Source: Mustelus asterias (taxonomy: Eukaryota). From it: a stretch of 64,000 bases of DNA. Shown one piece after another: positions 2,389 to 63,658 of the stretch. Location: assembly GCF_964213995.1 (NCBI RefSeq), contig NW_027590120.1, positions 1,178,001 through 1,242,000 on the forward strand, in the 5' to 3' direction. Position 1 is the stretch's first letter; each line of letters opens with the position of its first letter. The notes below the pieces were generated by a model, which was not told the DNA's origin, did not search any database, and saw only the letters and a list, made by a program, of their open reading frames with translations. Made by a program: the position numbers and the translations under genes.

Positions 2389-2847
2389 ATGAAGATACTC
2401 GTCATTTGGATTGTGTGGGGGGCATTTCTAACAGGTATATCTGGACATTACGTTTGTTTTCTCATTTCCAAAACTTGGGTTGAATCTTACTGTTGAGTAC
2501 TCGTCACTCTATTCTTTATCTATTTGAACATATTTTCCAGATCTGACCCATGGAGATTCTGTCACTCAGTCGCTGTCCTCAGATGTTAAGACAGAAGGAG
2601 ACGCGGTGACATTAAACTGCAACTATGATACTGCAGAAACCAGCTATATTTTATACTGGTACCGACAGCATCCAGACTCCCAGCCCGAGTACATACTGTG
2701 GAAGCTCTCAGGGGGTAATGAAGATAAAGCAGATTTTGCTAAAATCCGTTTCTCGACTGACCTCCAAACCTCGAAGAAATCCATCAGTTTGACTATCTCG
2801 GATCTGCAGTTGTCTGACGCGGCCGTGTATTACTGCGCTTTCAGCCT
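2389..2847 (+). CDS. TRAV: T-cell receptor alpha/delta-type V gene segment (V1), apparently functional; leader exon 2389-2434, intron 2435-2540, V exon 2541-2847
   Basis: Leader MKILVIWIVWGAFLT with phase-1 GT donor and ttttccAG acceptor. V exon reads DLTHGDSVTQ...VTLNC...LYWYRQ...LTISDLQLSDAAVYYCAFS, keeping both Ig cysteines and the conserved Trp. TRAV versus TRDV cannot be resolved here. Confidence 0.92.
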
Positions 2848-2886
2848 CACAGTGATGGAAAGCAGTTTGACTCCTGTACAAAAACT
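2848..2886 (+). other. 23-RSS of V1
   Basis: CACAGTG (2848-2854), 23-nt spacer, ACAAAAACT (2878-2886). Confidence 0.95.
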
Positions 2887-3998
2887 GTCTCAGCAAGATA
2901 AGTCAGAGCTCCTCGCTGCTGTATAGAACTTCTGGCAGATGCAGCCACAATGAGCAGCGGCGCTGTCAGCCGCTCAAACACAAACCGACAGGAAACCACA
3001 TTCACCTCGGATCAACTGTCACCCAACTGTTTCCAGGAGAGGCCGAGAAAACAAACTGCAGAACCGTTTTAGGCCGACAAGTCCATCACATAATGAATGT
3101 GTCAATTGAATCGTCCCTTCTGCTGCTAATCAACTCTGTATTCCTCTAAAATCAGACCTGGGTGATAAAATCCCAAACATCCGTCAAACCTGGCCGTGAA
3201 GCGCCACACACACAGCAGACGGACAGTTCTCCATGTCTGTGTGACGTCCTCTGATCCCGAAGTCCCTATTTGTCCTTTTCCTTCTTTTTCCATGCTGCTT
3301 ACCATATTGAACACCCGTCGCTCGATCTCCCTTTTCAGTTTCTGGGGGCCTTTGAGGGTGAGCTGTTCATAGCGTTTATTTGATCACTATTGCTACATTC
3401 CAGACAGCTTGCACACCCTGAACACATTTCATAAAGTTGCGACTTTGATTTCTCAAATAAATCCGAAGTTCAGAGCAGCCAGTTTCCACATCTCCCTGAC
3501 TGTCTCCACCGAAGACCAGGGTAGCATTAAACTTCTTATCATATCCGCATTGTTCATCTGTTTCTCGCTGCTCCTCGTTTCTGTAAATCAGATGAGTATT
3601 CGAATACTGTTCGGGAAAGATTGTGAAATTCAATTGAATGATCAAAGTCAATGAGTTCTGAAATCTGTTCATTTTTCATAAACTGTTTCTGACCCAACAA
3701 CACACTCTGATCAAATAAAACCAGAGGACTGGTCTCGGGCCAAAGGCTCCAGAAATCTAAAAGGGGAGATGAACAAGAGTTGTTTAGTGTTACAGACAGG
3801 CGTGGAAACAGCTTCAAAACACTAATTAAACGAAATAGATCAAATAGATTTCTAAAGGCGAGTTTTATTATGAATGCGCGTTAAAATCAACGAATACAAT
3901 TCCGCAAGTGTCCCTCACCTCTTCTCATGGGGGGTTATATTTTGTTCTTTTCTGTGACTCTCACTGGGTTTAATTCTTGTCCCGATTGATCAGTGTGA

Positions 3999-4017
3999 CA
4001 GCGCCATCTTCTGGCCA
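3999..4017 (-). promoter_or_regulatory. CTCF-like motif just downstream of the pseudo-V2 RSS
   Basis: Minus strand TGGCCAGAAGATGGCGCTG, one mismatch to CCASYAGRKGGCRS. Confidence 0.55.
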
Positions 4018-4041
4018 CCAACTGGAACTCCCATTCTGGGG

Positions 4042-4509
4042 GGTTTCGGACTGGATCCGCTCTATCTCTGTATCAGTGTGTGCTCCATCGCACGGAAATA
4101 CACGGCAGTATCCGACAGAAGAGCCCCCGCGAGATATACAGGAACTGTTTCATTTCCTTTCTGCAAATCTGCAGAAAACCTCCGTTTGGGGACCTTTCGT
4201 AACCCCCTAAGCTATATTTCTTCAGGAAATATCTCGGAGCTTCCCCGGAATACTGCATGTACCAGAGTAGAGTTGGGGTAGTGTAGGTTATCAAGTAACG
4301 GCAGTCCAGTCCACACTGTCCTTCCCGAATTGTCAATTCGAAATGAACCTGGAACACTGAAATTTTGCCACTCATTCATGTCACACAAATACAGACTGGC
4401 TCAAAAGTCAGGGTTTAAAAATAACCACTGGATGACATGGTTACCGTTTAATAATGGACTCGCCGGGCAGCAAGATCATTATAATCAGTAAGGAGCATGG
4501 AGAACACAT
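4042..4509 (-). pseudogene. TCR V pseudogene (V2); leader 4509-4464, V exon about 4377-4081, degenerate 23-RSS 4080-4042
   Basis: Leader MCSPCSLLIIMILLP (46 nt) with donor GCGAGT and acceptor CAT instead of CAG. V exon SVFQ..ELTIREG..LDC..LLWYMQYSGEAPRY, then a frameshift, then RFSADLQKGNETVPVYLAGALLSDTAVYFRAME (Cys to Arg). RSS CACACTG-23-TCCGAAACC. Confidence 0.85.
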
Positions 4510-4904
4510 GGTTTCCGTGTATACACTTCGATACGAAGTAACAAAATGCTCTAATTCTGCCGGTGATTCCAATCCAGTGTAAAGGGTAGCCCCTGTTATA
4601 ATCTGGGTTTATTTTTTGAGAAACTGAGGGGCATTTCCCAGAGACAGGATTGGCTACTCTGCCGGAACTGATGGATATTCCCCGCCAATAAATGAGAGCT
4701 GTAAAGAATCGCATTTTCTGGTTCCTTCTGTGTCTCATGTGACTTTCATCATAACTCTGTCTCATTGCTTCCGTCTCTCTGTTATACCAACCTCTCATTT
4801 TTTGTAAACCTTCTTATCGCTATCAAATGACTGAAAATTAATTCAAATAATTCAAGGGGTGACAACCGATTTTGACAAACTCGACAAACAAAGCTACCCG
4901 AAAC

Positions 4905-4921
4905 CACCAGCAGGTGGCGTG
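4905..4921 (+). promoter_or_regulatory. CTCF-like motif about 400 bp upstream of the pseudo-V2 leader
   Basis: CCAGCAGGTGGCG (4907-4919) matches CCASYAGRKGGCR exactly. Confidence 0.6.
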
Positions 4922-5436
4922 ACTTACCGTCGTTGCGGAGTTTTCACATTGCTACCTGACAATCAATGTGTCCTTTCTATTTGTCTCATTTAATGAATCC
5001 GTCATTACCAGAGACCATGAGAATGGCGGTGTAAATAAGAAACAGCTAAAGTTAACGACATAAACTTAAGATCACGTGTGTTCTCCGCTCTTGGATTGTT
5101 TGGAAATGGATAATGTTCACCAGATTTAAGCAGTGATCCTTCCTTGTTGATCAGCCCCACTACTCGCCATCAGCAATTGCTGAAACGATTCATTCCGCTG
5201 CTGTCTGCACCCGGGCAAAGTCAGTGAAGGCAAAAGTAGCGGAGCAGACCATGGCTGTATTTTGCGTTTCATTGACAGTCATCCAATGGAGCAGCACCAC
5301 CTTATCCTCACTGCTCACATCCGCACAGCGAAGTGTGTAAACCACCAAAGAAATTCTGTAAATTCAGAACATTTGCAGATCGTGCGATGGGCCCTTCACC
5401 CCATCGTGCGTGCTTGGCTGTCATTAATTGGTACAG

Positions 5437-5750
5437 TGGTGTCACAGTGGTTAGCACTGCTGCCTCATAATTCCAGGAATCCGGGTTCAGTTCCAGGCTA
5501 CGTGGAGTTTGCAGATGCTCCCAGTGTCTGTGTGGGGTGCCCCTTTTCCTCCGCCAGTTCAATGATGTGCAGGTTAGATGCGTTCAGCATGCCAACTTGT
5601 CAGAAATTTGTGGGTTAGAATAAATCGCCACGAAAAGTCTGTGGGGTTACGGTGATGGAGCAGGGGAGAGGACCAGGAAAATATACCCTGTCGGAGAGTC
5701 ACTGCAGACTCGAAGAGCTTGATGGCCTCCTTTTGCACTGTATGGATTCG
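5437..5750 (+). mobile_element. Degraded HE1/V-SINE-type SINE with CR1-like tail
   Basis: tRNA-like head GGTGTCACAGTGGTTAGCACTGCTGCCTCA, V-domain-like core and GCAGACTCGA..GGCCTCC tail. Confidence 0.7.
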
Positions 5751-6111
5751 AAGACAATTGTTGATCTTTTCATCAACTGCATTCCCTAAACTCCATATTC
5801 CTTATGCAAACGTAATTGGAGCAGCGCTGGGAAGCTTACTTCCAGCAATGTAACTCAAACATACGTGAGAGTTTCTTTATTGAATTTTCAGTCATCTACC
5901 TGAATCACTCAAACATTCTGGGTTCATGCCTACCATTAAGGATACCTGTGGCCACGGAGGGGCATCATGGTGATTGAATAAGCAGTGATCCTTAATTGAG
6001 TTACAATTAATGAATCAGTCGTTATAGTAAAAGACTGAGTTTTTATTTGCTGTTAAAATGTAAAATCTTAATTGCTGTGTATGTAACGAATGTGCAATGA
6101 AGATAAATTTT

Positions 6112-6415
6112 TAAAGTTTATTTATTTGTGTCACAAGTAGGTTCACATTAACACTGCAATGAAGTGACTGTGAAAATCCTCCAGTCGCCACATCCGGCGC
6201 CTGTTCGGGTTACACTGAGGGAGAATTTAGCATGACCAATGCACCAAACCAGCACGTCTTTCAGACTGGGGAAGGAAACAGGAGCGGCTGGAGGAAACCC
6301 ACGCAGACACGGGGAGAACGTGCAGACACCACATGGACAGTGACCCAAAACGAGAATCGAAACCAGATCCCTGGCGCTGTGAGGCAGCAATGCCAACCAC
6401 TGTGCCACCGTGCCG
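6112..6415 (-). mobile_element. HE1/V-SINE-type SINE
   Basis: Reverse complement of the head CACGGTGGCACAGTGGTT, the V-domain core and the tail ...CTTGTGACACAAATAAATAAACTTT. Confidence 0.8.
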
Positions 6416-6827
6416 CAGCTGGCGTAGTGTACTGGCGAGAGAGATCTTCAAACTCTGATTAGCCTCAACATTTGAAACTGTGTGAATAAGGGGATTGTAT
6501 AGAATCAGTTAAAGGGACAGCATGAACCAGTTCTCTTGTATTCCTGTCTAAGATAATGAGCGAAAGTGGTGTCAGTAATTGAGGATCCAATTCAATTAAT
6601 CTGGTGACCAAATTGACCAATTGTCATGTTCCAACAGGCCCAACTCTGACGTGAGGTAACGGTCACTTTGGGGATAAAAGTAGAGGTTCTGAAGGTCTTC
6701 CTTGTGAACCAAATTCTGAAAACTCCCGAGGCTGAGTTCCAAGGAAATTCCTGTGAAAGAAGGAGCCAGAGAGGGTTACTCTTCTACGGACCGATCACCC
6801 GCATGAAGTTGTGAAAGTCAATGTCTT

Positions 6828-7105
6828 AAAGTTTATTTATTAGTCACAAGTAGGCTTACATTCACGCTGCAATGAAATTACTGTGAAATTCCCCTAGTTG
6901 CCACATTCTGGCGCCTGTTCAGGTACACTGAATGAGAATTTAGCATGGCCAATCCACCTAACCTGCACATCATTGGGCTGTGGGAGGAAACCGGAGGACT
7001 TGGAGGAAACCCATGCAGACATGGGGAGAATGTGCAGACTCCGCACAGACAGGGACCCAAGCCGGGACGCTGTAAGGCAGCAGTAACCACTGTGCCACCG
7101 TGCTC
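6828..7105 (-). mobile_element. HE1/V-SINE-type SINE
   Basis: Same head, core and tail as 6112-6415. Confidence 0.75.
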
Positions 7106-7720: not shown

Positions 7721-8829
7721 TTACCATTACCTTACATTGGTAGATTCACAAATGTTACACTAACATTTTGAAACTTAAACCTGCCATTTCACTCAGTCAG
7801 GAACAGATCCGTTTTACACCAATCTCTGATTTGACAGCCCGTTTCCATTATTCACTGTTGTTCTTCCTGACTCTAAAACACATTGTAAAGGAGTTTCTGT
7901 TCCGTGTCCAGGAGCTCAGAGTCATGGAAGAAAGCGGCTGGACACATTTCTCACGCACCTCAGGATTAACCCACATGGAGATTTTGCTGTCAGTGAAGAG
8001 AGATGAGATAAAGATAAAGTGGGGGGTGAGCCCACTTGTGCTTCAGCCGGGCGGGGGGGGGGGGGGGGTGGGGGCGGTGTGGAGGGGTGGAATGAACAAA
8101 TGAATCACTTCCCACAGTCCCCACATTTCCATGGTTTCCCCCCAGCTTGACTGTGCTTTTATCTTGTGTCCCCTCATAACTGACTCTTCAACTAAGAGGA
8201 ACAGCTGCTCCCTCTGCACCCTGTCCATGCCCTTCTTTCTTCACCCAGAGAGTGGTGAATGTGGGGAAATCAGTACCTCAGAAAATAATTAAGGCCAAAG
8301 TGTTTTGTGATTTGAAGAAGGAATTACAAACAGCTCTTGGGCCTAAAGGGATATGGGGAGAGAACCGGGATCACGTATTGAATTTGATGATCAGCCATGA
8401 TCATAATAAATGGCAGAGTAGCTCAAAGGAGTGAATGACCGACCCCTGCTTCTAGTTTCTATGTATGTTTCAATGTTACAAGGCCTCTAACTCAAATATA
8501 ACTGTTAATTGTCAATGGCTGGGGAGTTAACAGTTCCAGACCTTAGCTCATCCAGACTTGATGGGATTCACAGTCCGTACTCTGTAATTAAACCATAAAA
8601 AGTTTAACTCTGCACCATCCACGGGCCATGTGATGTATTTCGCTTGTCAAATAAGGATGCAGCTACAGACAAAGAGCCAGTCACATGATACTAATGTCTT
8701 ACACCGATTACAACTGAGCAGAATATCACATCAGGTTAAATGATGAATATAATTCAATTACTTGATCATTACACATAGCAAGTATAAACTAACTTCAACA
8801 TGAGTTTTCCTCCAGTCTCTCAGTTGAGT

Positions 8830-9715: not shown

Positions 9716-11339
9716 TATGAGACAAAGTCCCATCTTCACACTGAGAATACCCTCCATCATCTTGTGTGGCACTATCACCATGCTAAACGGGATAGATTCA
9801 GAATAGACATAGATCAAAACTGCACATCCATGAGGTGCTGTGGGTCATCAGCAGCTCAATATTCAACCACTATCTGTAAACTCATGGCCCGGCACATCCC
9901 TCACTCGACCATTACCATCAAGCCAAGGGACCAACTCTGGTTCAACATGGAGTGTAGGACGACATGTCAGGAGCAGCACCAGGCACCCTAAAACAGATTC
10001 CAATATGGTGACTATAACACGGGACTTTAAGGGGCGGGTGGGACAGGGACGAAAGGAAGGTCTGTGAGAGGGTGGAAGACAGGAGAGATTGAATGAGAGA
10101 AAAGTGAATCCCCCCCCAGAGCCAAACTCCCTCAGAGGCTCCCACACTGCATTCCAACAAACTGAACTGGATTGGACTGAATGGGAAGTCATGGCAATGT
10201 AACCCTCACTGACTTCATGGATCAAGTACATTTCTGGATGGAAATTAGCTGCATAGACTCCAGCCTGGTTGTTGGTGTGAAACAGGAGCTGATGTCTATC
10301 TGTGTGTGTGTGAGTCCCTGCCTGCAGCTCCCAGAGAGTTTAAAATCCTGCATCTGTCTCTCTGCAGAGCTGCTGGTTAAAGACACATTTACAGCATTGA
10401 TCAGACAGAAACTTCACTCTCATTCTCTCCCTCCCCTCCCCCAGCCAGTGCTTCTGTTAAAAGAAGTTGAAACGCTTTATTTTGCAGCTCTGATCTCTGG
10501 TGAATCATTAACCACTAAGCACAGGGCACACACACACATTCACACACCCGGACAGACAACAGACAGATTGTAAATCAGAAGTGGGATTTGTAAACGCAGC
10601 AACAAAGAACTTTGCAAGATATTGTTTCAGTTCAGGCAACTTAAGGAAAAGTGAACTTTGCAAGAATCAGCAAAGGGTGCAAACCTGTAGCCGATGGAGT
10701 CCTGGATGAACAAGTTGTACAATCCACATTCAGACCTGGCCTCTCTCTCTCTCTGGCAGTGCAGGGCTGCGAGTTAATTGAAACCCATCTTCTCTCAGCT
10801 CCCAGTGCTGGTGATGTGAAGCTGGGAGTGGGGGGGAGGGAGAGCCTTGGGATAAACCATTTGCCTGGTGCTCAGTAACCCACACACACACCACCCCCAC
10901 ACATTCAGAGACAGGTTGGTGTTGGACTGGGCCAGGTAGGAGGAGGTGTGTTCAGGTGAGGTGGAGGAGCTGTGGTTGGATGAGGATTGATTGGGGAGGT
11001 GTGGGACTCAGTGAGGTTATAAAAAGGCTGGCGATGCATTGTTCTGTCTCTCTCTCCACGTGGGTTGGTAAGTATCAGGTAAGCTGTGTCTTTGTGAGTG
11101 AGTGAGTCAGTGTGTGCTTGCATGGAGTTCCAGCTCTGATATTTTAACCCCCCCTTTCCCAGCACAAAGCCCCTGTTCCTGGATCTCTCTCCCCCACCAT
11201 GGGAGAGGGGATGGAAGGAGTTGGAGAGATCACCGAGGGAAAACATGTGCGATGGTGAGTATGAACCTCTTCACTTTCTGTCCGCACCTTTCCCGCCTCA
11301 GCCCTGCTTTTCTCTCTGTTTGCAGCCTCCTCTCAATCT

Positions 11340-11767: not shown

Positions 11768-12677
11768 NNNNNNNNNNNNNNNNNNNNNNNNNNNNNNNNN
11801 NNNNNNNNNNNNNNNNNNNNNNNNNNNNNNNNNNNNNNNNNNNNNNNNNNNNNNNNNNNNNNNNNNNNNNNNNNNNNNNNNNNNNNNNNNNNNNNNNNNN
11901 NNNNNNNNNNNNNNNNNNNNNNNNNNNNNNNNNNNNNNNNNNNNNNNNNNNNNNNNNNNNNNNNNNNNNNNNNNNNNNNNNNNNNNNNNNNNNNNNNNNN
12001 NNNNNNNNNNNNNNNNNNNNNNNNNNNNNNNNNNNNNNNNNNNNNNNNNNNNNNNNNNNNNNNNNNNNNNNNNNNNNNNNNNNNNNNNNNNNNNNNNNNN
12101 NNNNNNNNNNNNNNNNNNNNNNNNNNNNNNNNNNNNNNNNNNNNNNNNNNNNNNNNNNNNNNNNNNNNNNNNNNNNNNNNNNNNNNNNNNNNNNNNNNNN
12201 NNNNNNNNNNNNNNNNNNNNNNNNNNNNNNNNNNNNNNNNNNNNNNNNNNNNNNNNNNNNNNNNNNNNNNNNNNNNNNNNNNNNNNNNNNNNNNNNNNNN
12301 NNNNNNNNNNNNNNNNNNNNNNNNNNNNNNNNNNNNNNNNNNNNNNNNNNNNNNNNNNNNNNNNNNNNNNNNNNNNNNNNNNNNNNNNNNNNNNNNNNNN
12401 NNNNNNNNNNNNNNNNNNNNNNNNNNNNNNNNNNNNNNNNNNNNNNNNNNNNNNNNNNNNNNNNNNNNNNNNNNNNNNNNNNNNNNNNNNNNNNNNNNNN
12501 NNNNNNNNNNNNNNNNNNNNNNNNNNNNNNNNNNNNNNNNNNNNNNNNNNNNNNNNNNNNNNNNNNNNNNNNNNNNNNNNNNNNNNNNNNNNNNNNNNNN
12601 NNNNNNNNNNNNNNNNNNNNNNNNNNNNNNNNNNNNNNNNNNNNNNNNNNNNNNNNNNNNNNNNNNNNNNNNNNNNN
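11768..12677. other. Assembly gap (910 N)
   Basis: Run of N. Confidence 1.
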
Positions 12678-13612: not shown

Positions 13613-13724
13613 TGAAAGAAAGATACAGGGGGGCGATCTTACCGGCTCGACTCGCCGCTCGATTAGACCGGTGAGCCAGGAAGATAGCGTGCGAGACTGG
13701 CTGGGAGTTTTGCTAGTGCAGTTC

Positions 13725-16750: not shown

Positions 16751-16751
16751 A

Positions 16752-19514: not shown

Positions 19515-19563
19515 CAGGAACACCAATAACTCCATGGATCAGGTGGTATATTTTCTTCACCAT
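19515..19563 (-). pseudogene. Relic first exon of a third GPR139/142-like GPCR, cut by a CR1 insertion
   Basis: Minus strand (M)VKKIYHLIHGVIGVP followed by phase-1 G|GTAAGT. This is the same (I/V)GVP exon end as the two intact GPCR genes. Confidence 0.6.
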
Positions 19564-20893: not shown

Positions 20894-21022
20894 NNNNNNN
20901 NNNNNNNNNNNNNNNNNNNNNNNNNNNNNNNNNNNNNNNNNNNNNNNNNNNNNNNNNNNNNNNNNNNNNNNNNNNNNNNNNNNNNNNNNNNNNNNNNNNN
21001 NNNNNNNNNNNNNNNNNNNNNN
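20894..21022. other. Assembly gap (129 N)
   Basis: Run of N. Confidence 1.
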
Positions 21023-22284: not shown

Positions 22285-25200
22285 TCAGGGTCTAATGAGT
22301 TGAAGAATTGCAGTAAGGGGAGCTTTCAGCAGATTTTTCAGCTGCTGTCTGAACTGAGTCTGTGTCACAGCATAAATGGCAGTGTTTGTACAGCAACTTG
22401 TGAGTTGGAGCATGAAACCCAATTCCATAACAAAATAATGTAACCATACTGGGCTATAGCTCACATTTAACATCCGACTCCATATAGAATAAACCATGAA
22501 TGTCGACCATAAGACGATGAAATTGGCTGAGATAACAAACAGTAAAATGATGGATTTCCTTCGACTCTCCATCTCTGGGTCTCTGGGATTCTCTCCACTG
22601 CTGTGAGCCCGGAGTCTCCTGCGGGCTCTGCTGCTCATTAAAATGTGTCTGACGGTGAAAGCATTGAGCAGCAGAATCAGGACGAATGGGACACATGGGG
22701 TTAGAATGTAGTGGAGGAACTCGATTGTTCCCCAGACCGGAGAGTACATAACATGCCATGTGACCAAACAAAACCAGGGGTCGTTCTCCAGCCGATATCT
22801 ATTTAATAACACAAAATACCAGAAAATGTTCTTTAAGCAGCTCAGCACCGTCACTGTTCCCAGAACCACAGCCGCCGATTTCTCGCTGCAATATTTACTT
22901 TTCAGCTTGGGGCAGCAAATGGCCACAAATCGATCAAAGGTGAAAGTGACGGTGAACCAGACAGAACAGTCAGTGGCTGCATAAAGCAGGACGGCGTGGA
23001 TGTTACACACGGGGACTGAGCTCAGGAAAGTAAACAGTTCCTGATAAACAATAGGAATTTGTCTCAATATCAGGTCGAGGATAACGACCAGCAGATCCCC
23101 CACTGACATGGCCACCAGGTAACGGGTGACACAGTTGGACAGACCACAGTTTCTGCTCGTCAGTGTCACAATTGTGATTATGTTCACTGTCAGGAAGGGA
23201 AATAAAGAATAAAATTAGACAGGATTCAGGGAAAGAAGTTACCATTTGGACTGAGGATGGGTTGAAATAAAAAAGAATGGACACACATAAAATCACTGAA
23301 ATCTGTTTTTAAAAATCCAGCACGTCTTTTGCAGTGTGAGAGGAAAGTGGAGAACCGGAGGAAACCCACGCAGACACGGGGAGAAGGCCCAAACTCCACA
23401 CAGACAGTGACCCAAGCCTGGAATTGAACCCATGTCCCTGACGCTGTGAGTGAGCAGTGCTAACCACTGTGTCACCGTGCTGCAGTATGGTCGCGACACA
23501 GTGGTATACATTTGGGAAGAGATTTCCGCTGAGTACACAACATTGACCCTCACTCAGCTGCAGGTAAATAGCCCCTCTACCTTGTGGGGGATTTGGAGGG
23601 TAAGAAGGATGAGTGAGTAAACACTGACAGAAAATCCAGACTGGAGTCCTGGAGCTGGTAATCTGTTGTCACTCAGACAACTCACTGACAACCCCTGCAG
23701 CAGAGCTGGTAACAAACAGTGCTGGTTTCACCCTTTCCTCTGGACAATAGTAACAGTTGGAAGAGGGAGATCCCGATGCCTCAACAGTTCCGACTCTATT
23801 ATACTTCCACAGGACTGGAGAGGAGACCACAGCATTGTGACCACCGTTAGCACAACACAGGAAGAAACAGTAATCTCACACTCGATTGGCACAAAGCACA
23901 AGTACCAGGGTTTCCTTTCAACAGTGGGAGAAAGGTTCAGGGTTCAGTGAATAGCTACCGTCCTTAGTGCCCAGTGCGTTTGCTGCTCTCCCCCTATGGC
24001 CTGCTGGACCACTGAAGCTTAGTGAGTCCTCTCTCAGTAGAAAATTTGCTAATCTATGCACCAGGTAAGAAGAACTCAAACCAAGGCCGGTACCAAAGAA
24101 AGGCCAAGCAGGCTGCCTTAATAACTATTGTCCGGTGACTCTGACATTCAATATTATGAAATGCATCAAAAGGTTAGTCATGGCATGAATCAATTCCTGC
24201 CTCCCAGATTGCCTGGATACACTACAGTTCACCTACTTCCGCAACAGGTCCACAGACGCCATCTCCCTGGCCCGACAGTCAACCCTGGAACACAGACTCG
24301 TGTTTATCGACTACAGCTCAGCGTTTAACACCATTATTCTTACGAAACTCATGTCCAAAGTCTGTATCCTGGGGTTCGGCTCCTGCCTCTGCAATTGGAT
24401 CCTGAACTTCCTGACGCGCAGACAGCAATAAATAAGGACAGTCAACAAAACCTCCTCCACAATCATCCTCAACAACAGTGCCCCACAAGGGTGTGTCCTC
24501 AGACCCTTACTATACTCCTTATACGCCAATGACTGAGTGGCCTAATTCCCGTCCAACTCTATTTCCCAGTTTCCTGATGACACCACGGAGTGGGTCGGAT
24601 CTCAAACAACGATGACACCAAGAACAGGGAAGAGACAGAGAATCTGGTGAAGTGGTGGGACCACAATTATCTCTTCCTCAATGTCAACAATGCAAAGGAG
24701 ATCGTCATCGACTTCAGGAAGCAGAGTGGAGTACATGCCCTGTCTAAACAATGGGATGAAGTTGAAATGGTTGAGAGCATCAAGTTTGTATGGGTCCAGA
24801 TCACCAGCAACCTGTCCTGGCCCCTCCACGACGATCCCATAATTAAGAAAGCCGATCAACGCCCCTACCTTCTCAGAGGTCTAAGGACAATTGGCATGTC
24901 AGCTACGATTCTCTCCAACTTTTAGAGATGCACCATAGAGAACTGTCTTTCTGGTTGTGTCACAGTTTGGTATGGCTCCTGCTCTGTCCAAAACTACACA
25001 AAACTTCAAAGCTTTATGAATGGAACTCAGTCCATCACTCAAACCACCAATTGACACTGTCTCCACTTCCCGCTGCCTGGGAAAAGCAGCCAGGCTAATT
25101 AAGGACCCCGCTCACCATGGAGATAAACTCTTCCAACTTGTTCCGTCGGAAACTAAGATGAAAAAGTCTGAGGACATGTACCAGCTGACTCATAGAATCA

Positions 25201-28200
25201 TAGAAACATTACAGTGCAGAGGAAGGCCATTCGGCCCATTGAGTCTGCACCGACAACTATCCCACCTATGTCCTATCCCCTAAGTCCCATATGTACCCTG
25301 GTAATGTCTCTAACATACATATCCCGGGACCCTAATGGGCAATTTTGCATGGCCCATCAACCTAAGCTGCATATCTTTGGACTGTGGGTGGAAACCAGAG
25401 CATCCGGAGGAAACCCACGCAGACCTATGAAGAATGTACAAATTCCACACAGTGCTCCAAGCTGCGAATCGAACTCAGGTCCCTGTGAGACAGCAGTGCT
25501 AACCATTGTGCCATCATGCTGCCGACTCAAGAACAGCTTCTTCTCTGCTGCCATCAGACATTTGAATGGACCACCATCGCATCATGATGATCTTTTTCTA
25601 CACCTTAGCTATGATTGCAACATTACATTCTGCACTCTCTCCTTCTCTATGTATGGTATGCTTTACCTGCATATCACTGAAGGAACAATACTTTTCACTG
25701 TATACTAATACATGTTACAGTAATCAATCAAATCAATTCAAATCAAATCAAATCAGTCTTTCACATCTCAAGCTGGAACAATGCACAATGAACAGCAGAG
25801 TGTGAGGAAGTGCAGAGGGCCAGAATGAATGTGGGGCGCATATATAAGGATCCCTGAAGGCAGTAAGACAGGTAGATCAGGTGGTTAAAACAACATATAG
25901 GATACTTGTCTTTAGCAGCTGCAGCATAGAATATAAGAGGTGGGAGATTTTGATGGAAGTGTATAAAATGCTGGTTTGAGCAGAGCAAGAGAACTGTGTG
26001 CAGCGCTGGTCATCACACGACAGGAAGGATGTAATTTTACCTTAGAGCAGAGACGGCTGGAGGGAGAGTGGGTGTAGTGGGTGGTGGTGGGGAACACTTT
26101 CAGGTCGGGAGACGTGAGTGATCTGTACAAAACTATGTGGCACCAAGATAGGAAGAAAACTTCTCCTTTAGTAGAGGTGTCAATAACAAGTGGGGCGTGG
26201 ATTTAAGGCAAAGGGCAGATTTTTGTGAGTATTTGAGGGAAAATGTTCCCATCCACAGGGTGCTGGGGTCTGCAGTTCATGGTCTGAAAGGATGGTAGAA
26301 GCGGGAACAACCACAAGAGGCATTTAGATCAGCAATTCAAATGCCAGAGCACACATGGCTGTGGATCGAGTGCTGGAAAATGGAATTCGATTGGATAGGT
26401 GTTTGATGACCAGTTCAGACATAATGGGCCGAAGGGCCTCATTTTGTGCGGTTAAAACTCTATGGCTGTTAGACCACCCACAGCAGTGGCCACATCACTT
26501 GCAGCTCTTACAGCGCTGGCTGGGATACCGACCACGTACCAAACCGATGTGGTTGCAAATGCGCAATTGCAGCGAGCAGTGAGCTGCCTGGTCTGAGAGA
26601 GAAATCTGTCAGCTCTCTGCTGCTGCAGCGAGCTTCAACACAGCAGCTGCTCCCAGATAGTCCGGGGGTCCGCAGCACTTCGTGAGCAACCTCCGACCGG
26701 ATATAGCCCCACCCCCACTACCTGGACCAATCACCCACCTTCCTTCACACCAATTGCATGCAGAGAGGCTGCGTGACCCCACTCCCTACCCCACTGTGCA
26801 GGCAGAGAGGCAGCGAGAGCCCCTCCCTCCCTCACTGTGCACGCAGAGATACAGCGAGACCCCCTCCCTACCACAGTGTGCATGCAGAGAGGCAGCGACA
26901 CACCCTCCCTAACCCACTGAGCATGCAGAGAGGCAGCGAGACCCCCTTCCTACCCCATTGTGCATGCAGAGAGGCAGCGAGACCCCCTCCCTAATCCACT
27001 GTCCAGGCAGAGAGGCAGCGAGACCCCCTTCCTACCCCACTGTGCATGCAGAGAGGCAGCGAGACCCCCCTCCGTTCCCCAGTGTGCATGCAGAGAGGCA
27101 GTGAGACCCCCTCCCTACCCAACTGTGCACGCAGACAGGCAGCGAGACCCCGTCCCTACCTAACTGTGCACGCAGACAGGCAGCGAGACCCCCTCCCTAC
27201 CCGACTGTGCATGCAGAGAGGCAGCGAGACCCCATCCATAACCCACTGTGCGTGCAAAGAGGCAGCGAGACCCCTCTCCCTACCCCACTGTGCATGCAGA
27301 GAGGCAGCGAAACCCCCCTCCCTACCGCACCAATCACTTGCAGAGTGTCAGTGGGACCCTCTGCCCTTCACTACGTTGAGAGTGGCGGCAAGACCAAACT
27401 ACCTCAACAATCTCGAACAAAGTGGCAGCGGGGCCGCACTCCCTACTCCACCAATGACATGCAGCGTGGTATTGGGCCACCCTCCAAACCCGATCGGCCT
27501 GTTCCCCAAGTGCCAAGCTGCCTTCAGGCCCCGCCCCTGCAGGCCCCGCCCCTTCTGCTCCAGCCCCTGCAGGTCCCGCCCCTGCAGGCCCACTCCCTGG
27601 TACTGCCCGGTGAGCATTGCCCAAGGGGCACCTACCTTTGCCCTCGACCTTGCCCAGCGTCCTCAATGGTCTTTGGTTCTACTGGCGAAGTCATCATGAC
27701 TGGTCCACGTACGTGGGGTCCAGCTGTTTTCCTCACGACACACAACCTCTCCCAGTGAGGCAAGCGTGCAAAAGCAAAGGCAAGCGTGCCGCACAATTCC
27801 ATCCCAGGCTCGCTAATTTTATTTAAAATTGTTTTAAAATAAATTTAAATAATCTATTCAGCCTCTCGTCAGAAATGGGCAGGAGGCTGAATCCGCTGCA
27901 TATCCATTCCTGGTGAGGTTGCAAGAGGTGAGAAATCGGGCGTGGACCTGAGTTCTAGGCTGTTACACAGTTTTACTGCTCACCCTGTCATCAATAGACA
28001 GGAAGTAGCTGTAAACCCGCCCACCTCCCTTGTGTGTGTGTTTGTGTGTTTGTGTGTAAATCTGATTGCCTTTATCAGCAAATGTGTGCATTTGTGTATG
28101 TGCGTCTAGGTGTGTCTGTGTTTGTGTTTCTGTGAATGTAGGAGGGTTTGTGGTGGTACAGCATTGTTGCCTCACAGCACCAGGGGCCCTGGATCAATTC

Positions 28201-29244
28201 CAGGCTTGGCTACTGTCTGTACAGAGTTTGCACGGTCTCCCTGTGTCTGCGTGGTTCTCCTCTGTGTGCTCCGATCTCCTCCCAAAATCTGAAAATTACT
28301 CTGTTTAGGTGCATTGGCCAAGATAAGTTCTCCCTCAGCGTACCCGAACAGGGGCTGAAATGTTCACAGTAACTTCAGGGGATTTTTAAACTAACTTCAC
28401 TCTAATGTTAATGTTTCCATACTTGTGACACTGATGAGTAATTTCAAACTTTAGAAAACATGTTCTCTCTCTGTGAGATCTTGCTGTGCACATATGACTA
28501 ATAAAATGATTCTGTGATCTGCTGACTGGGTGGGTGATTAGCAGTGAACTGGTGTTACGTGCAGAGGGTAAAAATGATTCTGCCTCAATCTCTTATTCAC
28601 GAACGAATAGTGTTTGAGATCACATGTCTATGGAAAGTCACAACACACAGAAGACATTTCAGCCCATAGGCCCTGAGCCAATTGTCAGTCGCTGAAAGAA
28701 TTAATAACTGGATACAGAGATTCAACAGAAACAACAAGAGCAGCAAACCGTGTACAGTAAATTATAAGAAAATCAATACAGTTAAACAGCCTTTGTAGAA
28801 TTAGGAACTGTACACAGGGGACAGGACCTTACAGCCTCACTCTTCCCCAAGCTGCCAAATCCCACCCGTGTTCAACAGACCTTCCCATGCTCCGCCCCTC
28901 GTCTGCACCGATTCCCGTGGCGGTCGGGCCGGTACAATTCCAGCCAGGGACTTACCCGGAACACCAACAATCGCTAGGAGGGGATAGTAAAAGTGTTGAA
29001 TCGCCTTCAGCAGATATCGAATCCGATCAGCTGATGTTATCCACCAACCATCTGCAGTAAACCAAGAAATCCAATGGAATAAACTTCTGTCCTTAACTGG
29101 AACATTCCAATCCATTGTTCCCAGATTCTGATCTATTGTTGAAACATTCCGGTTCATTGTTCCCAGATTCGGATCCATTGTTGGAAGATTCCAATCCATT
29201 GTTCCCCGGATTCTGATCTCTCCTCTCCCTCCCTCTCTCTCCAT
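22285..29244 (-). CDS. Class A GPCR, GPR139/GPR142-like (GPCR-1); exon 1 29244-28956, exon 2 23186-22285; about 396 aa from the first ATG
   Basis: Exon 1 ends [12 protein letters not shown]|GTAAGT and exon 2 starts cctgacAG|TG AAC, giving GVPVNIITIV (TM1). Motifs AMSVGDLL (TM2), [22 protein letters not shown] (TM6) and CCTNTAIY (TM7) are present. No stops. Confidence 0.88.
23315..23482 (-). mobile_element. HE1/V-SINE-type SINE (partial), in the GPCR-1 intron
   Basis: Head and V-domain on the minus strand. Confidence 0.75.
24180..25755 (+). mobile_element. Degraded Rex1/Babar-like non-LTR retrotransposon (RT part), interrupted by a SINE
   Basis: [34 protein letters not shown]-like and KEIVIDFRK motifs, with a (AATCA)n tail at about 25725-25755. 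Confidence 0.7.
25190..25522 (-). mobile_element. HE1/V-SINE-type SINE with CR1-like tail nested in the Rex1-like element
   Basis: Head, V-domain and ...GGCCTTCCTCTGCACTGTAATGTTTCTATGATTCTATG tail on the minus strand. Confidence 0.75.
26755..27330. repeat. 41-bp minisatellite (TGCATGCAGAGAGGCAGCGAGACCCCCTCCCTACCCCACTG), about 14 copies
   Basis: 41-nt period measured between successive CATGCAGAG. Confidence 0.9.
28149..28450 (+). mobile_element. Degraded HE1/V-SINE-type SINE
   Basis: Head, V-domain and tail recognisable. Confidence 0.65.
29098..29202 (-). repeat. Coding 21-bp tandem repeat x5 in GPCR-1 exon 1 ([35 protein letters not shown])
   Basis: Direct inspection of DNA and translation. 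Confidence 0.85.
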
Positions 29245-51212: not shown

Positions 51213-53394
51213 TTAGCCAGTGAGCGTGGTGAAGGGGCATAGCAGAACCTTCTTCAGGTCCTCTCGGAACTTGGTCTGGGCGACTGCATAGATGAAGACG
51301 TTGTTGCAGGAACTGACTAGCTGGAGCATGTTTGCTGCTTCCTGAAAGACGTACCGTGGGTCTTTGAAATCCAGGCTGGTGCGGTAGCCCTCACCTGTAA
51401 TCCGCACATAGAGGAAGTGTGCGATATAGGTGACCCAGAGGAGGAGGAAGCTGAGGGCGATGGCGAAGAGTAGGATGATGGACCTCTTGCGGTTTGCCAT
51501 CTCTGGGTCCCTGTGACTCTCAGTGCCCCGGAGTCTCCTGCGGGCTCTGCTGGCCGCTAAGATGTGTTTTACGGTTAGAGCGTTAAGAAGCAGGATGAGG
51601 AGGAACGGGAGAAACGGAGTTAAGATGTAGTCCAGCCAGTCATAGGCCTGCCAGGCGGGCAGCGTGTAATAGCTGGACTTAAAAGCACAGAACCAGGGCA
51701 CCCCGTCCAGGGTGTACAAGGGCTGGTAAGTGAAGTAGAAAGGGACATTCCTGACACAGCTCAAGGCACAGACTATTCCTATAACCAGCAATGCTGCTTT
51801 CTCGGTGCAGTATCTGGTCTTCAGGCTCTGGCAGCAGATGGCCACAAAACGGTCGATGGTGAAAGCCACTGTCAACCAGACGGACATATCCCGCGCAAAA
51901 TAGACCAGCAGATTGCTGAGTGTGCATGCGGGGGTGGTAGACAGGACGCTGTTCTGAAAGTAGATCCGCCCAATCCGGTTGAGGATTATGGTGGTGATGA
52001 TGACAAGGAAATCAGTCAGTGCTATCGCGATCAGGTAGTAGGTGATGCAGCGTGACAGTCCGCACCGTCCTCGGGATAAGATTACGATCGTCACCAAGTT
52101 GGCTGTGAGATAGAAAGAGACAGAGAGAGGTGTTACAGAGAGGGCTCTAAACACCATCTGCTGCGCCATCCAATCGGTTACTGAAAACATCCTCATCCTT
52201 CACTTTGCCAACTCCAGACTCCAGTGATTGCAAAGTCTTTGGCAATGGTCCGACATTCAAAACTGGATTAAAGTTATTTTAAATCAGGAGACATTGCAAT
52301 CAGTCCAAATTGTTACTCTGCCCTCTGGTCACTGAGTTGATCCCCTCAGATAACTATCAAATTTCAGATTCTCCGTAAATGTGCTGTCGTTGTTCTTATT
52401 CGTACCAATCCCATCCATCCATCAGCCCTATCGGCTGCCATTCAGGCAGCGTCTCTGTTTTTATAATCTCGTCCTTCGAATTATAAATCCCTCCATAATC
52501 TTGCCTTTCCAGATTTTGATAACATGCTACAACTATCTGAGATCACACCATATCTCCGAGTGTGGACTTCCATGACCCTGATTTGATCTTTTCAGTTTGC
52601 CTTTATGTGCCGAGACCCTAATCTCTGGAACTCCTTCTTTCAAAGACTAATCTTTCCCTTTGTGCTTCAGGACGATCCTTAGAAAATAAATTATTTGAAC
52701 AATTCTAAGTCATTTTGTCGGTCAGTATAAAGTTGATTTGTTAAAGTCTTGTGAAGCATCCCCATTCTACTTATCCGAGCGTCTGAAGAAACAAACGCTA
52801 CATCGCCTTCTCAAATGAAAGCTAGATATGGACAAGACATATTCGCCTTGCCATATCTACATGCATACAGCTAGTGATTAAAAATATAATTATCCGAAAT
52901 TTACCACACTGACTAACACAAGACAAAATGCATAATGCATAACCCCCACACCTTTTTCAAACGTTTCAATAATTCAATCTTAAAACCTCAGTAACGATGT
53001 GGGCAGCCCAGTGCCGCCTCACTACAAATCAACCATTACTAACTGCTGGAGGTCACAGCTTAGGTTCATGTAAGCACTGAATGAATGTTCTATGTCAATG
53101 CATCTAATTGAATTATTAGATTGCGATAGCTCATTTTCTGAGACTGTGCATACCAGTGGATGAAATATAGGTCACTTTATAGACTTTATCGTGCAAAACA
53201 CTGAAAACACGAGATCGCATTTTACTACATTCGAATAAAACCGAATTTTCAACAATAAAAGGTTAATGATAATGCAACGCCATACATTTCAAGTCATGAG
53301 AATTATTTGGGATCTTTCACCTACCAGGAACACCAATGGCAGCGAGAATGGGATAAAAAATGGCGAAGAAGAGACCTTTCGCTGGTCCATGCAT
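51213..53394 (-). CDS. Class A GPCR, GPR139/GPR142-like (GPCR-2); exon 1 53394-53325, exon 2 52102-51213; 319 aa
   Basis: Exon 1 MHGPAKGLFFAIFYPILAAIGVP-G|GTAGGT and acceptor tctcacAG|CC AAC give GVPANLVTIVIL. Motifs [30 protein letters not shown] and SCNNVFIY are present. No stops. Confidence 0.88.
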
Positions 53395-57226: not shown

Positions 57227-57674
57227 GGTTTTTGTTCAGAGACAGATAAGTTTTGAACCACTGCGATCTTCAACCCACCGAAATAGAAGGCCATGTCCTG
57301 GATTCCTGTTCGAATGATCTTTAAGGGAAATCTCTTTTCTGTCTTAGTCTGACCAGCCTCGAATCTTCCTCTGGTAAAAACTGTGATTGTTCTTCGACTG
57401 TTATCCCGAAGTAAACTAAAACTCAGAAAGTAGTTTGTGTGCTGTCTGTGCCAATACAGATCAGGATTAAAGAGATTTGTTTTATAAGTACAATCTGTAA
57501 TCACACTGTCTCCTTCAGTCACGTAGAGTTCTGTCTTGGATTGTGATACCGAATCTGCGCGAATCCTCCCTGAAATAAAAATGAACAGTGGGTTGTGATG
57601 GAAGTATGTCATAAGTACATACGGCCATACGTACCGAGTTCAAACCACAATATAATGAGATGACGGGACGACAT
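57227..57674 (-). pseudogene. TCR V pseudogene/ORF (V3); leader 57674-57635, V exon 57569-57266, 23-RSS 57265-57227
   Basis: Leader MSSRHLIILWFEL-G|GT. V exon ADSVSQ..VTEGDSVITDC..LYWHRQ..FPLKI..DMAFYFGG is in frame but the second Cys is Gly. RSS CGCAGTG-23-ACAAAAACC has lost the essential CAC. Confidence 0.88.
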
Positions 57675-57890: not shown

Positions 57891-57907
57891 CTGCGCCACC
57901 TGGCCGC
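57891..57907 (-). promoter_or_regulatory. CTCF-like motif about 220 bp upstream of the V3 leader
   Basis: Minus strand GCGGCCAGGTGGCGCAG. Confidence 0.45.
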
Positions 57908-59022: not shown

Positions 59023-59556
59023 CGTGTCATTGAACATCAAGGGAAGGTGGCTGTGCTGTTTCGAAATGAGAATAATCAATGTCTTCATCGATACATTTTA
59101 GTGAATTGTTGATTAATGGAATGAGTCGATGGGTCAGGCAAACTAATATTTTATCCAGGACAACAGTTCTGCACATTAATACTGAGTTCCAGTATGTGCA
59201 GCCGATTTTCTCTGATAAATTCGCACTAGAATTATGTTATTTATTGGTCTGGATCATCTCTTTGACATTATTACTTTGAACCATGATCATATTTTAAAAG
59301 ACTACTTATTACTGCATTTGACCACTTGAACCCATTAAACGTTATTTCATGTTGCAGTCATCACTGTGTTTGAATATCCGACGATGTTTCTAAGACTAGA
59401 CTCTTTTTCCATCCAAATAATATCTGCAGCCTCTCTCTGTTTCACTTTTCTTTCCAATAATCCCATAACTGGTGTACAATTTACAGTTTTGGTCTTCCCC
59501 ATGGAAGGGAGCCGATAGAGGATTCAATGAAGACTGAATAAATGTGTCGTGGATAA

Positions 59557-59694
59557 GTGTGTAGTGATTGTAATCCAGCTTGTGGTTTTTCTATTTATTA
59601 ATAGCTGGCACACCATTTGCCAATCTCACGGCAAATGGTGTGCCAGCTATTAATAAATAGAAAAACCACAAGCTGGATTACAATCACTACACAC
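59557..59694. repeat. Perfect inverted repeat, 65-bp arms, 8-nt loop (AATCTCAC)
   Basis: 59557-59621 is the exact reverse complement of 59630-59694. Confidence 0.95.
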
Positions 59695-59785
59695 CACGTG
59701 TGACACCAGGTAGTGAGTTAAGAGCTGGATTTAGATCGGGTGTTTTCAAATATCAAACTGCACTTTTAAAGAGCGGACAGTGGCA

Positions 59786-61253
59786 ATGTGGTTACTCAGC
59801 TTCCGGGTTATGTGGGGAGCATTTCTGGCAGGTAACTGTTCGAAGGAACAATTTCATATTTTCTTTAGCTTTGTTGTTTACATATTTGCACACTTTTAGT
59901 CTCATCTGTTGCTGTGTGATTTTCTTTAGACCTGACACATGGAAATTCTGTCGCGCAGCGGCTCTCCACAGAAATGGGGACAGAAGGAGAAGCAGTGACA
60001 TTCACCTTTACATCTGATTCTACAGAGAGCAGCTATTATTTGTACTGTTACCGACAGCACCCAGCTACACAACCTGAGTTTATACGGTGGAAAGAATCCT
60101 GGGGTTCTGAAGATAAAACAAATGTTGCAAAAATGCGTTTCTCTACAGAGCTCGAGGGAATAACGTCAGCAGATTAACTATATCGAGTCTGCAGCTGACT
60201 GACGCTACCGTCAATTTCTGCGCTTTTAGTCTCACAATGATAAGAACATAAGAACATAAGAAATAGGAGCAGGAGTAGGCCATCTAGCCCCTCGAGCCTG
60301 CCCCGCCATTCAATAAGATCATGGCTGATCTGACGTGGATCAGTACCACTTACCCGCCTGATCCCCATAACCCTTAATTCCCTTATCGCTCAGGAATCCA
60401 TCCATCCGCGCTTTAAACATATTCAGCGAGGTAGCCTCCACCACCTCAGTGGGCAGAGAATTCCAGAGATTCACCACCCTCTGGGAGAAGAAGTTCCTCC
60501 TCAACTCTGTCTTAAACCGACCCCCCTTTATTTTGAGGCTGTGTCCTCTAGTTTTAACTTCCTTACTAAGTGGAAAGAATCTCTCCGCCTCCACCCTATC
60601 CAGCCCCCGTATTATCTTATAAGTCTCCATAAGATCCCCCCTCATCCTTCTAAACTCCAACGAGTACAAACCCAATCTCCTCAGCCTCTCCTCATAATCC
60701 AAACCCCTCATCTCCGGTATCAACCTGGTGAACCTTCTCTGCACTCCCTCCAATGCCAATATATCCTTCCTCATATAAGGGGACCAATACTGCACACAGT
60801 ATTCCAGCTGCGGCCTCACCAATGCCCTGTACAGGTGCATCAAGACATCCCTGCTTTTATATTCTATCCCCCTCGCAATATAGGCCAACATCCCATTTGC
60901 CTTCTTGATCACCTGTTGTACCTGCAGACTGGGCTTTTGCGTCTCATGCACAAGGACCCCCAGGTCCCTTTGCACGGTAGCATGTTTTAATTTGTTTCCA
61001 TTGAGATAGTAATCCCATTTGTTATTATTTCCTCCAAAGTGTATAACCTCGCATTTATCAACGTTATACTCCATTTGCCATATCCTCGCCCACTCACTCA
61101 GCCTGTCCAAATCTCTCTGCAGATCTTCTCCGTCCTCCACACGATTCACTTTTCCACTTATCTTTGTGTCGTCTGCAAACTTCGTTACCCTACACTCCGT
61201 CCCCTCCTCCAGATCATCTATATAGAAAGCATTGTTACCGCCATACAGAAACT
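59786..61253 (+). pseudogene. TCR V pseudogene (V4), paralog of V1; leader 59786-59831, V exon 59930-60232, RSS split by a CR1
   Basis: Leader MWLLSFRVMWGAFLA-G|GT. V exon has Cys to Phe, Trp to Cys and a frameshift, ending LQLTDATVNFCAFS. Heptamer CACAATG at 60233-60239, nonamer ACAGAAACT at 61245-61253. Confidence 0.9.
60243..61221 (-). mobile_element. Young 5'-truncated CR1 LINE inserted in the V4 RSS spacer
   Basis: Open RT C-terminal frame (KFADDTK, LVRPQLEYC), (AAGAACAT)n tail, and ATA on both sides. Confidence 0.93.
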
Positions 61254-61789
61254 CTATATAGGAGCTCCTGTCTGTGCGTGCCTGTGTATACTCGCTGGAG
61301 AATGCAACAATGAACAGTGCGGAGTCAGACACTCAAATACACATCAAGAAATCAAATTAACCTCGGACCAAACCGCCACTCAAACGCGACCAGGAGCGAC
61401 AGCGAAAATAAGTTGCTCTTTTATTAGAGACAGGAGCTCCGGATGAAAATCCGGTCTGTTAATTACCACTAGCAATCTGATATTCTGGAAAAATTAAACA
61501 TTCAAGCATTGGGAAGACGTGCTGAAGCACAGTACACATGTGGAGAGGGGCACTTTTTCTGTTTGCTTCAGTGATCATTTCTTTTGAAATCTGTCGATTA
61601 TCTTTGAACTGCCTCTTACCCAGCAGCACACTCTGGCCAAACACATATTCTGTAAACATAGATCGGGAAGGTGACGGGGGAGATGGCTAAAGGACAGGTC
61701 ATTACTGCAGCCAAGCTTAATTGCAAAATATCCCTCACTCTCTCTTTAAAAAAGACCAGAAAGACTCCAAGATAAGGAGTAAACATTTT

Positions 61790-62050
61790 ACACCTGTGGT
61801 GTGGAGAAATTCCTTCACCCAGAGAGTGAAGAATGTGTGGAATTCACGACCACAGAAAGTAGTTGAAACCAAAACGTTGTATTATTTCAAGAAGAAATTA
61901 TATGTAGCTCTTGGGGCTAAAGGGATCAAGGCATATGGGAGGTGGGAGGGGGAGGCAGCATCAAGATATTGAATTCGATTTTCAGCCATGATCATAATAA
62001 ACGGCAGATCAGGCTTGAAGGGCCAAATGGCCTACTTCTGTTTCTTTGTT
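61790..62050 (+). mobile_element. Degraded CR1 3' end
   Basis: RNSFTQRVKNVWNS..FKKKL and a 3' UTR. Confidence 0.7.
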
Positions 62051-62235
62051 TCTGTGATAATTGTGCTACATACTTGAATTTATGAGGTTCAGTATTATCA
62101 ATGCACTGAAATCCGGAGTTGATTCTCATTTTCTTTTATTTTTATTTTTCTTTTTAAGGATATTTTTGGAATGTCGCTTTGACGCTCGAGGTGTCATTTC
62201 AACTATCGCTGCCGTTTAGCACTCTTAGCACACTT

Positions 62236-62253
62236 TAGCGCCCTCTGGTGAGA
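62236..62253 (-). promoter_or_regulatory. CTCF-like motif about 900 bp upstream of the V5 leader
   Basis: Minus strand TCACCAGAGGGCGCTA. Confidence 0.6.
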
Positions 62254-63151
62254 ACTAACTGGGTATCTCTATCTAGGATTTTCTATGGATTTTCTTTTTT
62301 CCCTATATTTGTGGCAGCGAAATACGCAGCGGTGTCGGACAGAAGCACAAAAGTGACGTTTAAATGAATAATTTCCTTTAATCGTTTACTCAATTACTAA
62401 AGCTGTGTACTGTTCTCCAGCTGAGATATCGCCAACAATCAGTGCAATTGCAACAGTATTTAACTTAATTTCTCTTGAACATCGTCAGCTTTGGAAAAAA
62501 GGGCAACATCCAAATCACCCTTCCCAATTGATGGCTCCATCTTTAGATTAAATGTCTGTGTTTTGCGTGCAAGAACATACAAATCGCTCTGCACACCAGA
62601 AAGAAATAATTTCTCACTAATTACAATGTTTTATATTTCCTTTCTCTTCCCTGCAAATTGAATAGCATATTTTTCTATTCATGTCCCCAGTTGACGCGTC
62701 ACATAAACTCCACATAACCCTTGGCAGGACTTTCTATCTCTCTCTACAGCTGACTATGTAACGTCACTTTGTATTATCCGAAAACTTCGATAAATTACAC
62801 CTGCCCTCTCTGCATGTTAATAAAGTCCAGGTGAATAGCAGTGCTTCAGGGAGGCGGCTCACCAACACCTTTCCCGAGGATATCAAAGATGAAGAAATAA
62901 GCACTGGTCTTACCAGTGACGCTGGAATTAAGTGAAAAAATTAAATGCTTAACTGAACGTAATTCAATTGGATTCACGGTTATCACTGTTCCAATGGTAA
63001 AGCTATCAGAATTATTGAGAAAATGTGGAAAAACTCATTAATTTGTGCTAGTTTCCGCTCATCATAAGGCAACACCGGCAAATTACTGGGGGCGGGGTTT
63101 AGAATAGATTCTGTCAAATACCCAACTCTTTTCACAGCGCGGAAAGAGGCA

Positions 63152-63658
63152 GCACGGCTGCTCAGCATCTGGGTAGTGTGGGGAGCATTCTTGGCTGGTA
63201 AATGGGAATAAATACATTTCATCTTTTCTCTGACTTATCAAGCATGGCTCAAATATTTCCATATTTCTGGCCTGGCCAGTTTTTATTTGATTATGTTTCT
63301 TTGTTTTTTCAGATGTGACTAATGGAGATTCTGTCACTCAGCGGTTCCCCTCAGATTATAAAACAGAAGGAGAAGCGGTGACATTGACCTGTACCTATGA
63401 TGCCACAGCCACCAATTATTACTTACACTGGTATCGACAGCGCCCAGAGAAACAACCGGAATTTATAGTGATGAAAAGCTCTTTGGACACTGAGGATACA
63501 GCAAGTTTTACTCCAATCCGTTTCTCTGCTGAGCTCCAGATCGAGAATAAAGTCACCAGTTTAACCATCTCGGGCCTGCAGGTGACTGACGCTGGCGGCT
63601 ATTACTGAGCTTTCAGTCACTCAGTGATAGAAAACATTATCACCGCCGTACAAAAGCT
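63152..63658 (+). pseudogene. TCR V pseudogene (V5), paralog of V1; leader 63152-63197, V exon 63313-63619, 23-RSS 63620-63658
   Basis: Start codon replaced by GCA. V exon GDSVTQ..VTLTC..LHWYRQ..LTISGLQVTDAGGYY is followed by TGA in place of Cys (63606-63608). RSS CTCAGTG-23-ACAAAAGCT. Confidence 0.92.

Follow-up and report, generated by a model that had tools for sequence, protein, structure and literature searches.

In elasmobranchs, the antigen-receptor complex (AgRC) contains T-cell receptor (TCR)-type variable (V) exons that lie in both orientations and are spread over megabases between immunoglobulin heavy chain (IgH) clusters (PMC12227049). In human, mouse and sheep, olfactory receptor genes are found among TRAV1 and TRAV2 (PMC4574546), and in the human immunoglobulin (Ig) light-chain locus IGL the passengers PRAME, ZNF280A/B and GGTLC2 are inevitably lost when a more distal V segment is used (PMC9282919). 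We describe here a stretch of 64,000 nucleotides from the shark Mustelus asterias (contig NW_027590120.1, positions 1,178,001 to 1,242,000 of the forward strand; hereafter the window), in which two intact genes for class A G protein-coupled receptors (GPCRs), here GPCR1 and GPCR2, and the remnant of a third lie between V segments. We consider it probable (about 0.62) that the window belongs to the shark antigen-receptor complex, that within it a cluster of orphan class A GPCR genes is interleaved with an array of TCR alpha/delta V segments, and that the receptors are bystanders of V(D)J recombination.

The locus resembles the described AgRC in that its V exons occur in both orientations, some of them as pseudogenes, and relatives of its intact V segment and of GPCR2 appear to share contigs in other sharks. 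It differs in the receptors themselves: Table S1 of PMC12227049 covers only Ig- and TCR-related genes and a few markers, skipping gene numbers between V entries, and neither the text nor the two supplements of that paper mention GPR, GPCR or G-protein. As in the mammalian TRA/TRD locus, the TCR alpha/delta V segments of the window have intact genes for class A GPCRs among them, but the mammalian case comprises two or three olfactory receptors at the distal tip only, whereas the shark genes belong to a non-olfactory, two-exon family that would occupy many places along the array. Human IGL likewise holds embedded non-Ig genes that are deleted upon distal V use; that case concerns B cells and a few unrelated genes, while in the shark it would concern T cells and a multigene receptor family, possibly with inversion as well. 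Both the occurrence of GPCR genes among V segments and the loss of embedded genes depending on the V used are thus phenomena of known kinds, and the latter, put forward in the preliminary description of this DNA, has a precedent (PMC9282919). What appears to be new is the receptor family and its position within the shark complex, neither of which we found described in print in the literature searched, which lay mostly outside subscription journals. The literature portrays cartilaginous fishes as having few GPCRs and few classical odorant receptors (PMC8455134, PMC11979771). The whale shark genome paper, which speaks of a relative paucity of GPCRs, gives a single GPR142 orthogroup line in the contents of its 24 supplements (PMC8455134); the main text of a catshark sensory paper contains no mention of GPR (PMC11979771), and a term search of a Greenland shark preprint returned none.

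The features of the window are as follows.

2389..2886, plus strand: V1, a V segment of TCR alpha/delta type, intact (V exon at 2541-2847, preceded by a leader at 2389-2434 and followed by a recombination signal sequence with 23-nucleotide spacer, 23-RSS, at 2848-2886)
4042..4509, minus strand: V2, a V pseudogene (GC splice donor, frameshift, second cysteine replaced, decayed nonamer)
19515..19563, minus strand: orphan first-exon remnant of a third GPCR gene, with splice donor (49 nt, between fragments of long interspersed nuclear elements, LINEs)
22285..29199, minus strand: GPCR1, an intact two-exon class A GPCR gene (exons 29199-28956 and 23186-22285, 381 amino acids)
51213..53394, minus strand: GPCR2, an intact two-exon class A GPCR gene (exons 53394-53325 and 52102-51213, 319 amino acids)
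57227..57674, minus strand: V3, an open-frame but non-functional V segment (second cysteine changed to glycine, heptamer not starting with CAC)
59786..61253, plus strand: V4, a V pseudogene (first cysteine and tryptophan lost, frameshift, RSS split by a LINE)
63154..63658, plus strand: V5, a V pseudogene (no ATG, stop codon at the second cysteine, heptamer not starting with CAC)
11768..12677: assembly gap of 910 N, flanked by satellite arrays
20894..21022: assembly gap of 129 N

A profile of shark V domains detected five V segments in total, at 2.4-4.5 kb and 57.2-63.7 kb, so that they flank the receptor genes on both sides. V1 alone (1/5) is of the working type: it has a leader exon, its V exon is open and retains both cysteines and the tryptophan, and its RSS points toward the GPCR genes. 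The window contains one match to the consensus 23-RSS, that of V1, against none in 100 shuffled sequences. The flanking arrangement given in the preliminary description stands, while the 23-RSS that it attached to the V segments is found in consensus form in V1 only. Four shark products that join V, joining (J) and constant (C) sequences and carry two different constant regions have V domains with 59-69% identity to V1 (69% for P0153, 59% for P0156), and because these close relatives occur joined to J and C we regard V1 as a TCR alpha/delta-type V segment. One of the two constant regions is labelled TCR alpha in Table S1 of PMC12227049; the second is presumably delta. V2 lies tail to tail with V1, and V1, V4 and V5 form one family with 69-72% DNA identity. 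From their lesions, four of the five local V segments are predicted to be unable to recombine or to encode a domain. In V4, the 3' piece of a LINE (about 60243-61221) is inserted exactly between the heptamer and the 23-nt spacer, with spacer and nonamer intact beyond it, and just upstream lies a 138-bp inverted repeat (59557-59694, 94% identity), likely a small DNA element. No D, J or C segment, J motif or constant-region match was detected within the 64-kb window, nor any convincing 12-RSS.

Both receptor genes proved as intact as first described, with uninterrupted reading frames on the minus strand and a phase-1 GT-AG intron placed after GVP (5769 nt in GPCR1, which has a long N-terminus, and 1222 nt in GPCR2). 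The Pfam domain 7tm_1 was found in both receptors (66 and 77 bits, cut-off 30.5), and the only other Pfam domain was a weak Srx match. A structural model of GPCR2 exon 2 forms a seven-helix bundle with helix 8, as in class A receptors, at a mean confidence (pLDDT) of 75.6; peptide receptors such as NTSR1 are its best fold matches, at a TM-score of about 0.7-0.8, the 49 listed matches do not include GPR139, and no single ligand class stood out in this fold search. The two receptors are 48.5% identical to each other. GPCR1 is 69.5% identical to the zebra-shark protein P0203, and GPCR2 is 94-97% identical to six Mustelus asterias proteins on six contigs. The N-terminus of GPCR1 (29199-29090, minus strand) contains a 38-nt internal duplication (92% identity) and a glycosylation sequon, which GPCR2 lacks, and the GPCR1 intron holds a reverse-transcriptase remnant of a different LINE type (23400-25200).

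The relic of a third receptor noted in the preliminary description is real. Its first exon starts with an ATG at a LINE junction and stays in frame up to the donor, which ranks third among 320 donor sites on the family matrix and scores 19.1, compared with 8.7 for the best of 100 shuffles. A second exon was not found in the sequenced DNA of the window by tblastn, blastn or the family profile (hidden Markov model). The gap of 910 N, 7 kb downstream of this first exon, roughly matches a second exon in length, and a GA-rich tract comes after it, just as one does after the second exon of GPCR1; because of these resemblances, the missing part of the third gene could be hidden in the gap.

To which family do these receptors belong? 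A search with GPCR2 returned 1306 proteins at E<=0.001, and 116 of the 120 best-listed relatives come from 19 shark and ray species, the other four carrying no species name. Nearly all listed relatives bear the automatic name 'probable GPR139', as do the corresponding ESM Atlas clusters. Among human sequences with a solved structure, GPR139 is the nearest, yet it matches with E-values of only 2e-8 and 7e-6, far from the conservation expected of GPR139 orthologues, which are 70% identical between human and zebrafish (PMC7318219). We aligned the two window proteins with 30 relatives picked by hand from the 120 listed. The residue R6.51, unique to GPR139 and GPR142 (PMC8807744), is absent in 32 of 32 aligned members and is replaced by tyrosine in GPCR2 and phenylalanine in GPCR1; E3.32 is likewise present in none of the 32. 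Of the Trp/Phe pocket of GPR139 and GPR142 (E3.32, F3.33, H5.43, W6.48, R6.51, N7.38; PMC7318219), each window receptor keeps two of six residues identically, the tryptophan and the asparagine in GPCR2 and the tryptophan and the histidine in GPCR1. W6.48 is invariant in the alignment, as are the cysteines of transmembrane helix 3 (TM3) and extracellular loop 2. Orthology to GPR139 or GPR142 was rejected on the missing R6.51 and E3.32 and the low match to human GPR139, which reduces the earlier designation 'GPR139/142-like' to a label taken from the nearest human name.

Some resemblance to these receptors is nevertheless evident. W6.48 is kept and, as in GPR139 and GPR142, there is no proline at 7.50; GPR139 has two coding exons, as the window genes do. 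In the alignment, the splice point of the window genes falls on the corresponding part of TM1 in GPR139, and the intron of human GPR139 may likewise lie at the end of TM1. In contrast, the aligned TM3 position of GPR139 lacks the cysteine that is invariant in the shark and ray family, and one conserved gene there is set against many copies here. The shark and ray receptors look like a separate GPR139-related lineage that has exploded in elasmobranchs. Five proteins automatically named GPR139 (P0272, P0284, P0294, P0315 and P0309, from salamander, coelacanth, teleost and amphioxus) are closer to the shark family than human GPR139 is: on the family profile, salamander scores 215 bits, coelacanth 187, teleosts 165 and 124 and amphioxus 136, compared with 70 for human GPR139. 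These relatives may mark an unnamed vertebrate GPCR lineage. An identity as olfactory receptors was also considered and rejected, as the window genes have two exons and no Pfam domain beyond 7tm_1 and the weak Srx match; olfactory receptors have an olfactory-type Pfam domain and a single coding exon.

In a quick tree of 68 sequences, which included no true GPR139 or GPR142, GPCR1 and GPCR2 fell into different well-supported clades, and to judge from this placement they are two old subfamilies of one family. The many near-identical Mustelus copies show recent duplication. Self-comparison of the window revealed satellites, pieces of LINEs and short interspersed nuclear elements, the V1/V4/V5 similarity and one short coding match between GPCR1 and GPCR2, but no repeated unit containing both a V segment and a receptor. 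Because two old subfamilies stand side by side and no such unit is repeated, the window gives no support to the earlier idea that the GPCR family co-duplicated with the V genes. Three fused gene models (P0253, P0254 and P0301) combine family members with what by eye are integrin alpha-, sodium channel- and uromodulin-like sequences, a hint that receptor copies also exist in other gene neighbourhoods.

The proposal that TCR V segments here have an expanded GPCR family in their midst is borne out by the window and gains from other sharks, for which co-location was read from equal contig sizes of protein records and from accession order rather than from coordinates. In the whale shark, 10 of 11 listed receptors and the V-J-C chain P0153 have a contig of 11,734,621 bp, and in the horn shark a contig of 59,489,666 bp is common to five of seven listed receptors and the two-V model P0146. 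Two of the 17 listed epaulette shark receptors go with the TCR alpha chain P0156 on a contig of 5,136,515 bp, a size that fits scaffold NW_026867487.1 in the entries of Table S1 of PMC12227049; there, V entries reach 5.119 Mb and gene numbers 671, 673, 675, 681 and 682 are skipped, and the two epaulette receptor accessions project to gene numbers of about 669-671. All three listed receptors of the great white shark, and one further cluster member, lie on one contig, with accessions 27-161 above that of UrIg2 of the chromosome-27 complex, which projects them into the number range of the V array. It is therefore likely that the V-GPCR neighbourhood is common to several sharks and reflects conserved linkage, with receptors and V segments probably interleaved there as well. 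Of the five GPCR1 relatives looked up, four have a contig, none of which is the V-bearing or the main GPCR2 contig of the species, although those of the horn shark sit on small scaffolds.

Several points weigh against the reading of the window as part of the complex with bystander receptors. The indirect placement in the other sharks is one, and the accession projections are inexact, with three of six falling on numbers of V genes (two of four in great white, one of two in epaulette). Shark synteny, to which the preliminary description had looked, indicates the neighbourhood in whale, horn, epaulette and great white sharks, but 15 of the 17 epaulette relatives are on other contigs, some of 116-168 Mb, and the family is not confined to the complex. 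The linkage of the window to J and C is deduced from other species, the bystander and chemosensory steps are predictions, and linkage conserved across several shark orders could reflect selection instead of accident.

According to the bystander interpretation, the V array and the GPCR cluster would each evolve by their own birth and death in a duplication-prone zone in which both families expanded. V(D)J joining follows the 12/23 rule. A T cell that joins a V segment distal to the receptors would delete them on that allele if the orientation is the same, or invert them if it is opposite. As the RSS of V1 faces the receptors, V1 would delete them if D, J and C lie to the right and leave them untouched if these lie to the left. 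Such loss would be tolerable, since the receptors probably function chiefly in non-rearranging cells and have close paralogues elsewhere. We predict that the receptors themselves are seven-helix proteins that sense peptides or small metabolites outside the cell, with a pocket that differs from the one in GPR139, and by analogy a repertoire of such size most likely serves chemical sensing; this likely function is suggested by fold, family size and analogy only.

The most serious competitor, which we still regard as unlikely, is that the window is an orphon-like outlier. In this view, a block with V segments and receptors has been duplicated and is either not linked to D, J and C or lies at too great a distance from them; RAG would then never act across the receptors, and the V segments would decay. 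Four dead V segments of five, the lack of J and C in 64 kb and six near-identical GPCR2 relatives on six Mustelus contigs would all be expected from such a block, and in the great white shark the distance between V exons and the listed TCR constant model reaches about 9 Mb. V1, however, retains its open frame, both cysteines and a consensus RSS, and close relatives of this segment occur in products that also contain J and C; moreover, an unlinked orphon is disfavoured in the epaulette and whale sharks because their receptors share a contig with a V-J-C model. A technical origin of the neighbourhood, with a scaffold mis-join uniting a left V pair and a receptor block that are not neighbours, is highly improbable. 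Both N gaps, bordered by satellites and LINE pieces, do separate V1 and V2 from the GPCR genes, and repeats make up 61% of the window (38% LINE-coding), but GPCR1, GPCR2 and V3-V5 lie in one gap-free block, with only 3.8 kb between the start of GPCR2 and V3, and V1 is of one family with V4 and V5 on the far side. A mis-join is also unlikely because the same neighbourhood is indicated in other shark assemblies.

Two further explanations assign the linkage a function. In one, the orphan GPCR repertoire along the TCR alpha/delta V array would be expressed in T cells, and the choice of V would delete or invert a V-dependent subset of it in each clone; if true, the sensing repertoire of every T-cell clone would be somatically edited along with its antigen receptor. 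The geometry permits this, as the V1 RSS faces both receptors, the linkage recurs in several sharks, and a diverse family within an immune gene complex is suggestive. We nonetheless find such coupling very doubtful: near-identical copies on other contigs would buffer any loss, most local V segments are dead, co-duplication of V segments and GPCR genes is not seen in the window, the human IGL case is described as an expected by-product, and losses would form a nested, position-dependent series without free choice. About equally doubtful, if not slightly more so, is the notion that the receptors are immune-cell sensors, such as receptors for chemoattractants or danger signals, which shared regulation keeps close to the antigen-receptor genes, their deletion playing no part. 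Lineage-specific expansion is typical of immune receptors and speaks for this notion, as does the fact that members of the GPCR2 subfamily are concentrated on the TCR-bearing contig of the whale, the horn and probably also the great white shark. It would, however, presuppose receptor expression in immune cells, the GPCR1 relatives looked up are on contigs other than the TCR-bearing ones, and linkage need not mean immune function, as the olfactory receptors next to mammalian TRAV illustrate.

The presence of the receptors would have consequences beyond this locus. A many-copy family under the automatic name 'probable GPR139' would change the picture of cartilaginous fishes as GPCR-poor, and the family could represent a missing repertoire for chemosensation or immune sensing. 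It would also add a non-Ig resident to a locus regarded as the ancestor of IgH and TCR alpha/delta, in an apparently independent parallel to the olfactory receptors beside mammalian TRAV, and the receptors could serve as markers of how far a V segment may lie from J and C and still be used.

A Pfam search for hidden genes on six frames of seven stretches (42 translations) gave a single reverse-transcriptase match and nothing else. At about 11016-11085 on the plus strand, a TATA-like box precedes a short exon-like stretch with splice donors, downstream of which no coding exon was found. At about 8100-8164 on the minus strand, a short remnant with no Pfam match resembles, by eye, the linker and first cysteines of a C2H2 zinc finger.

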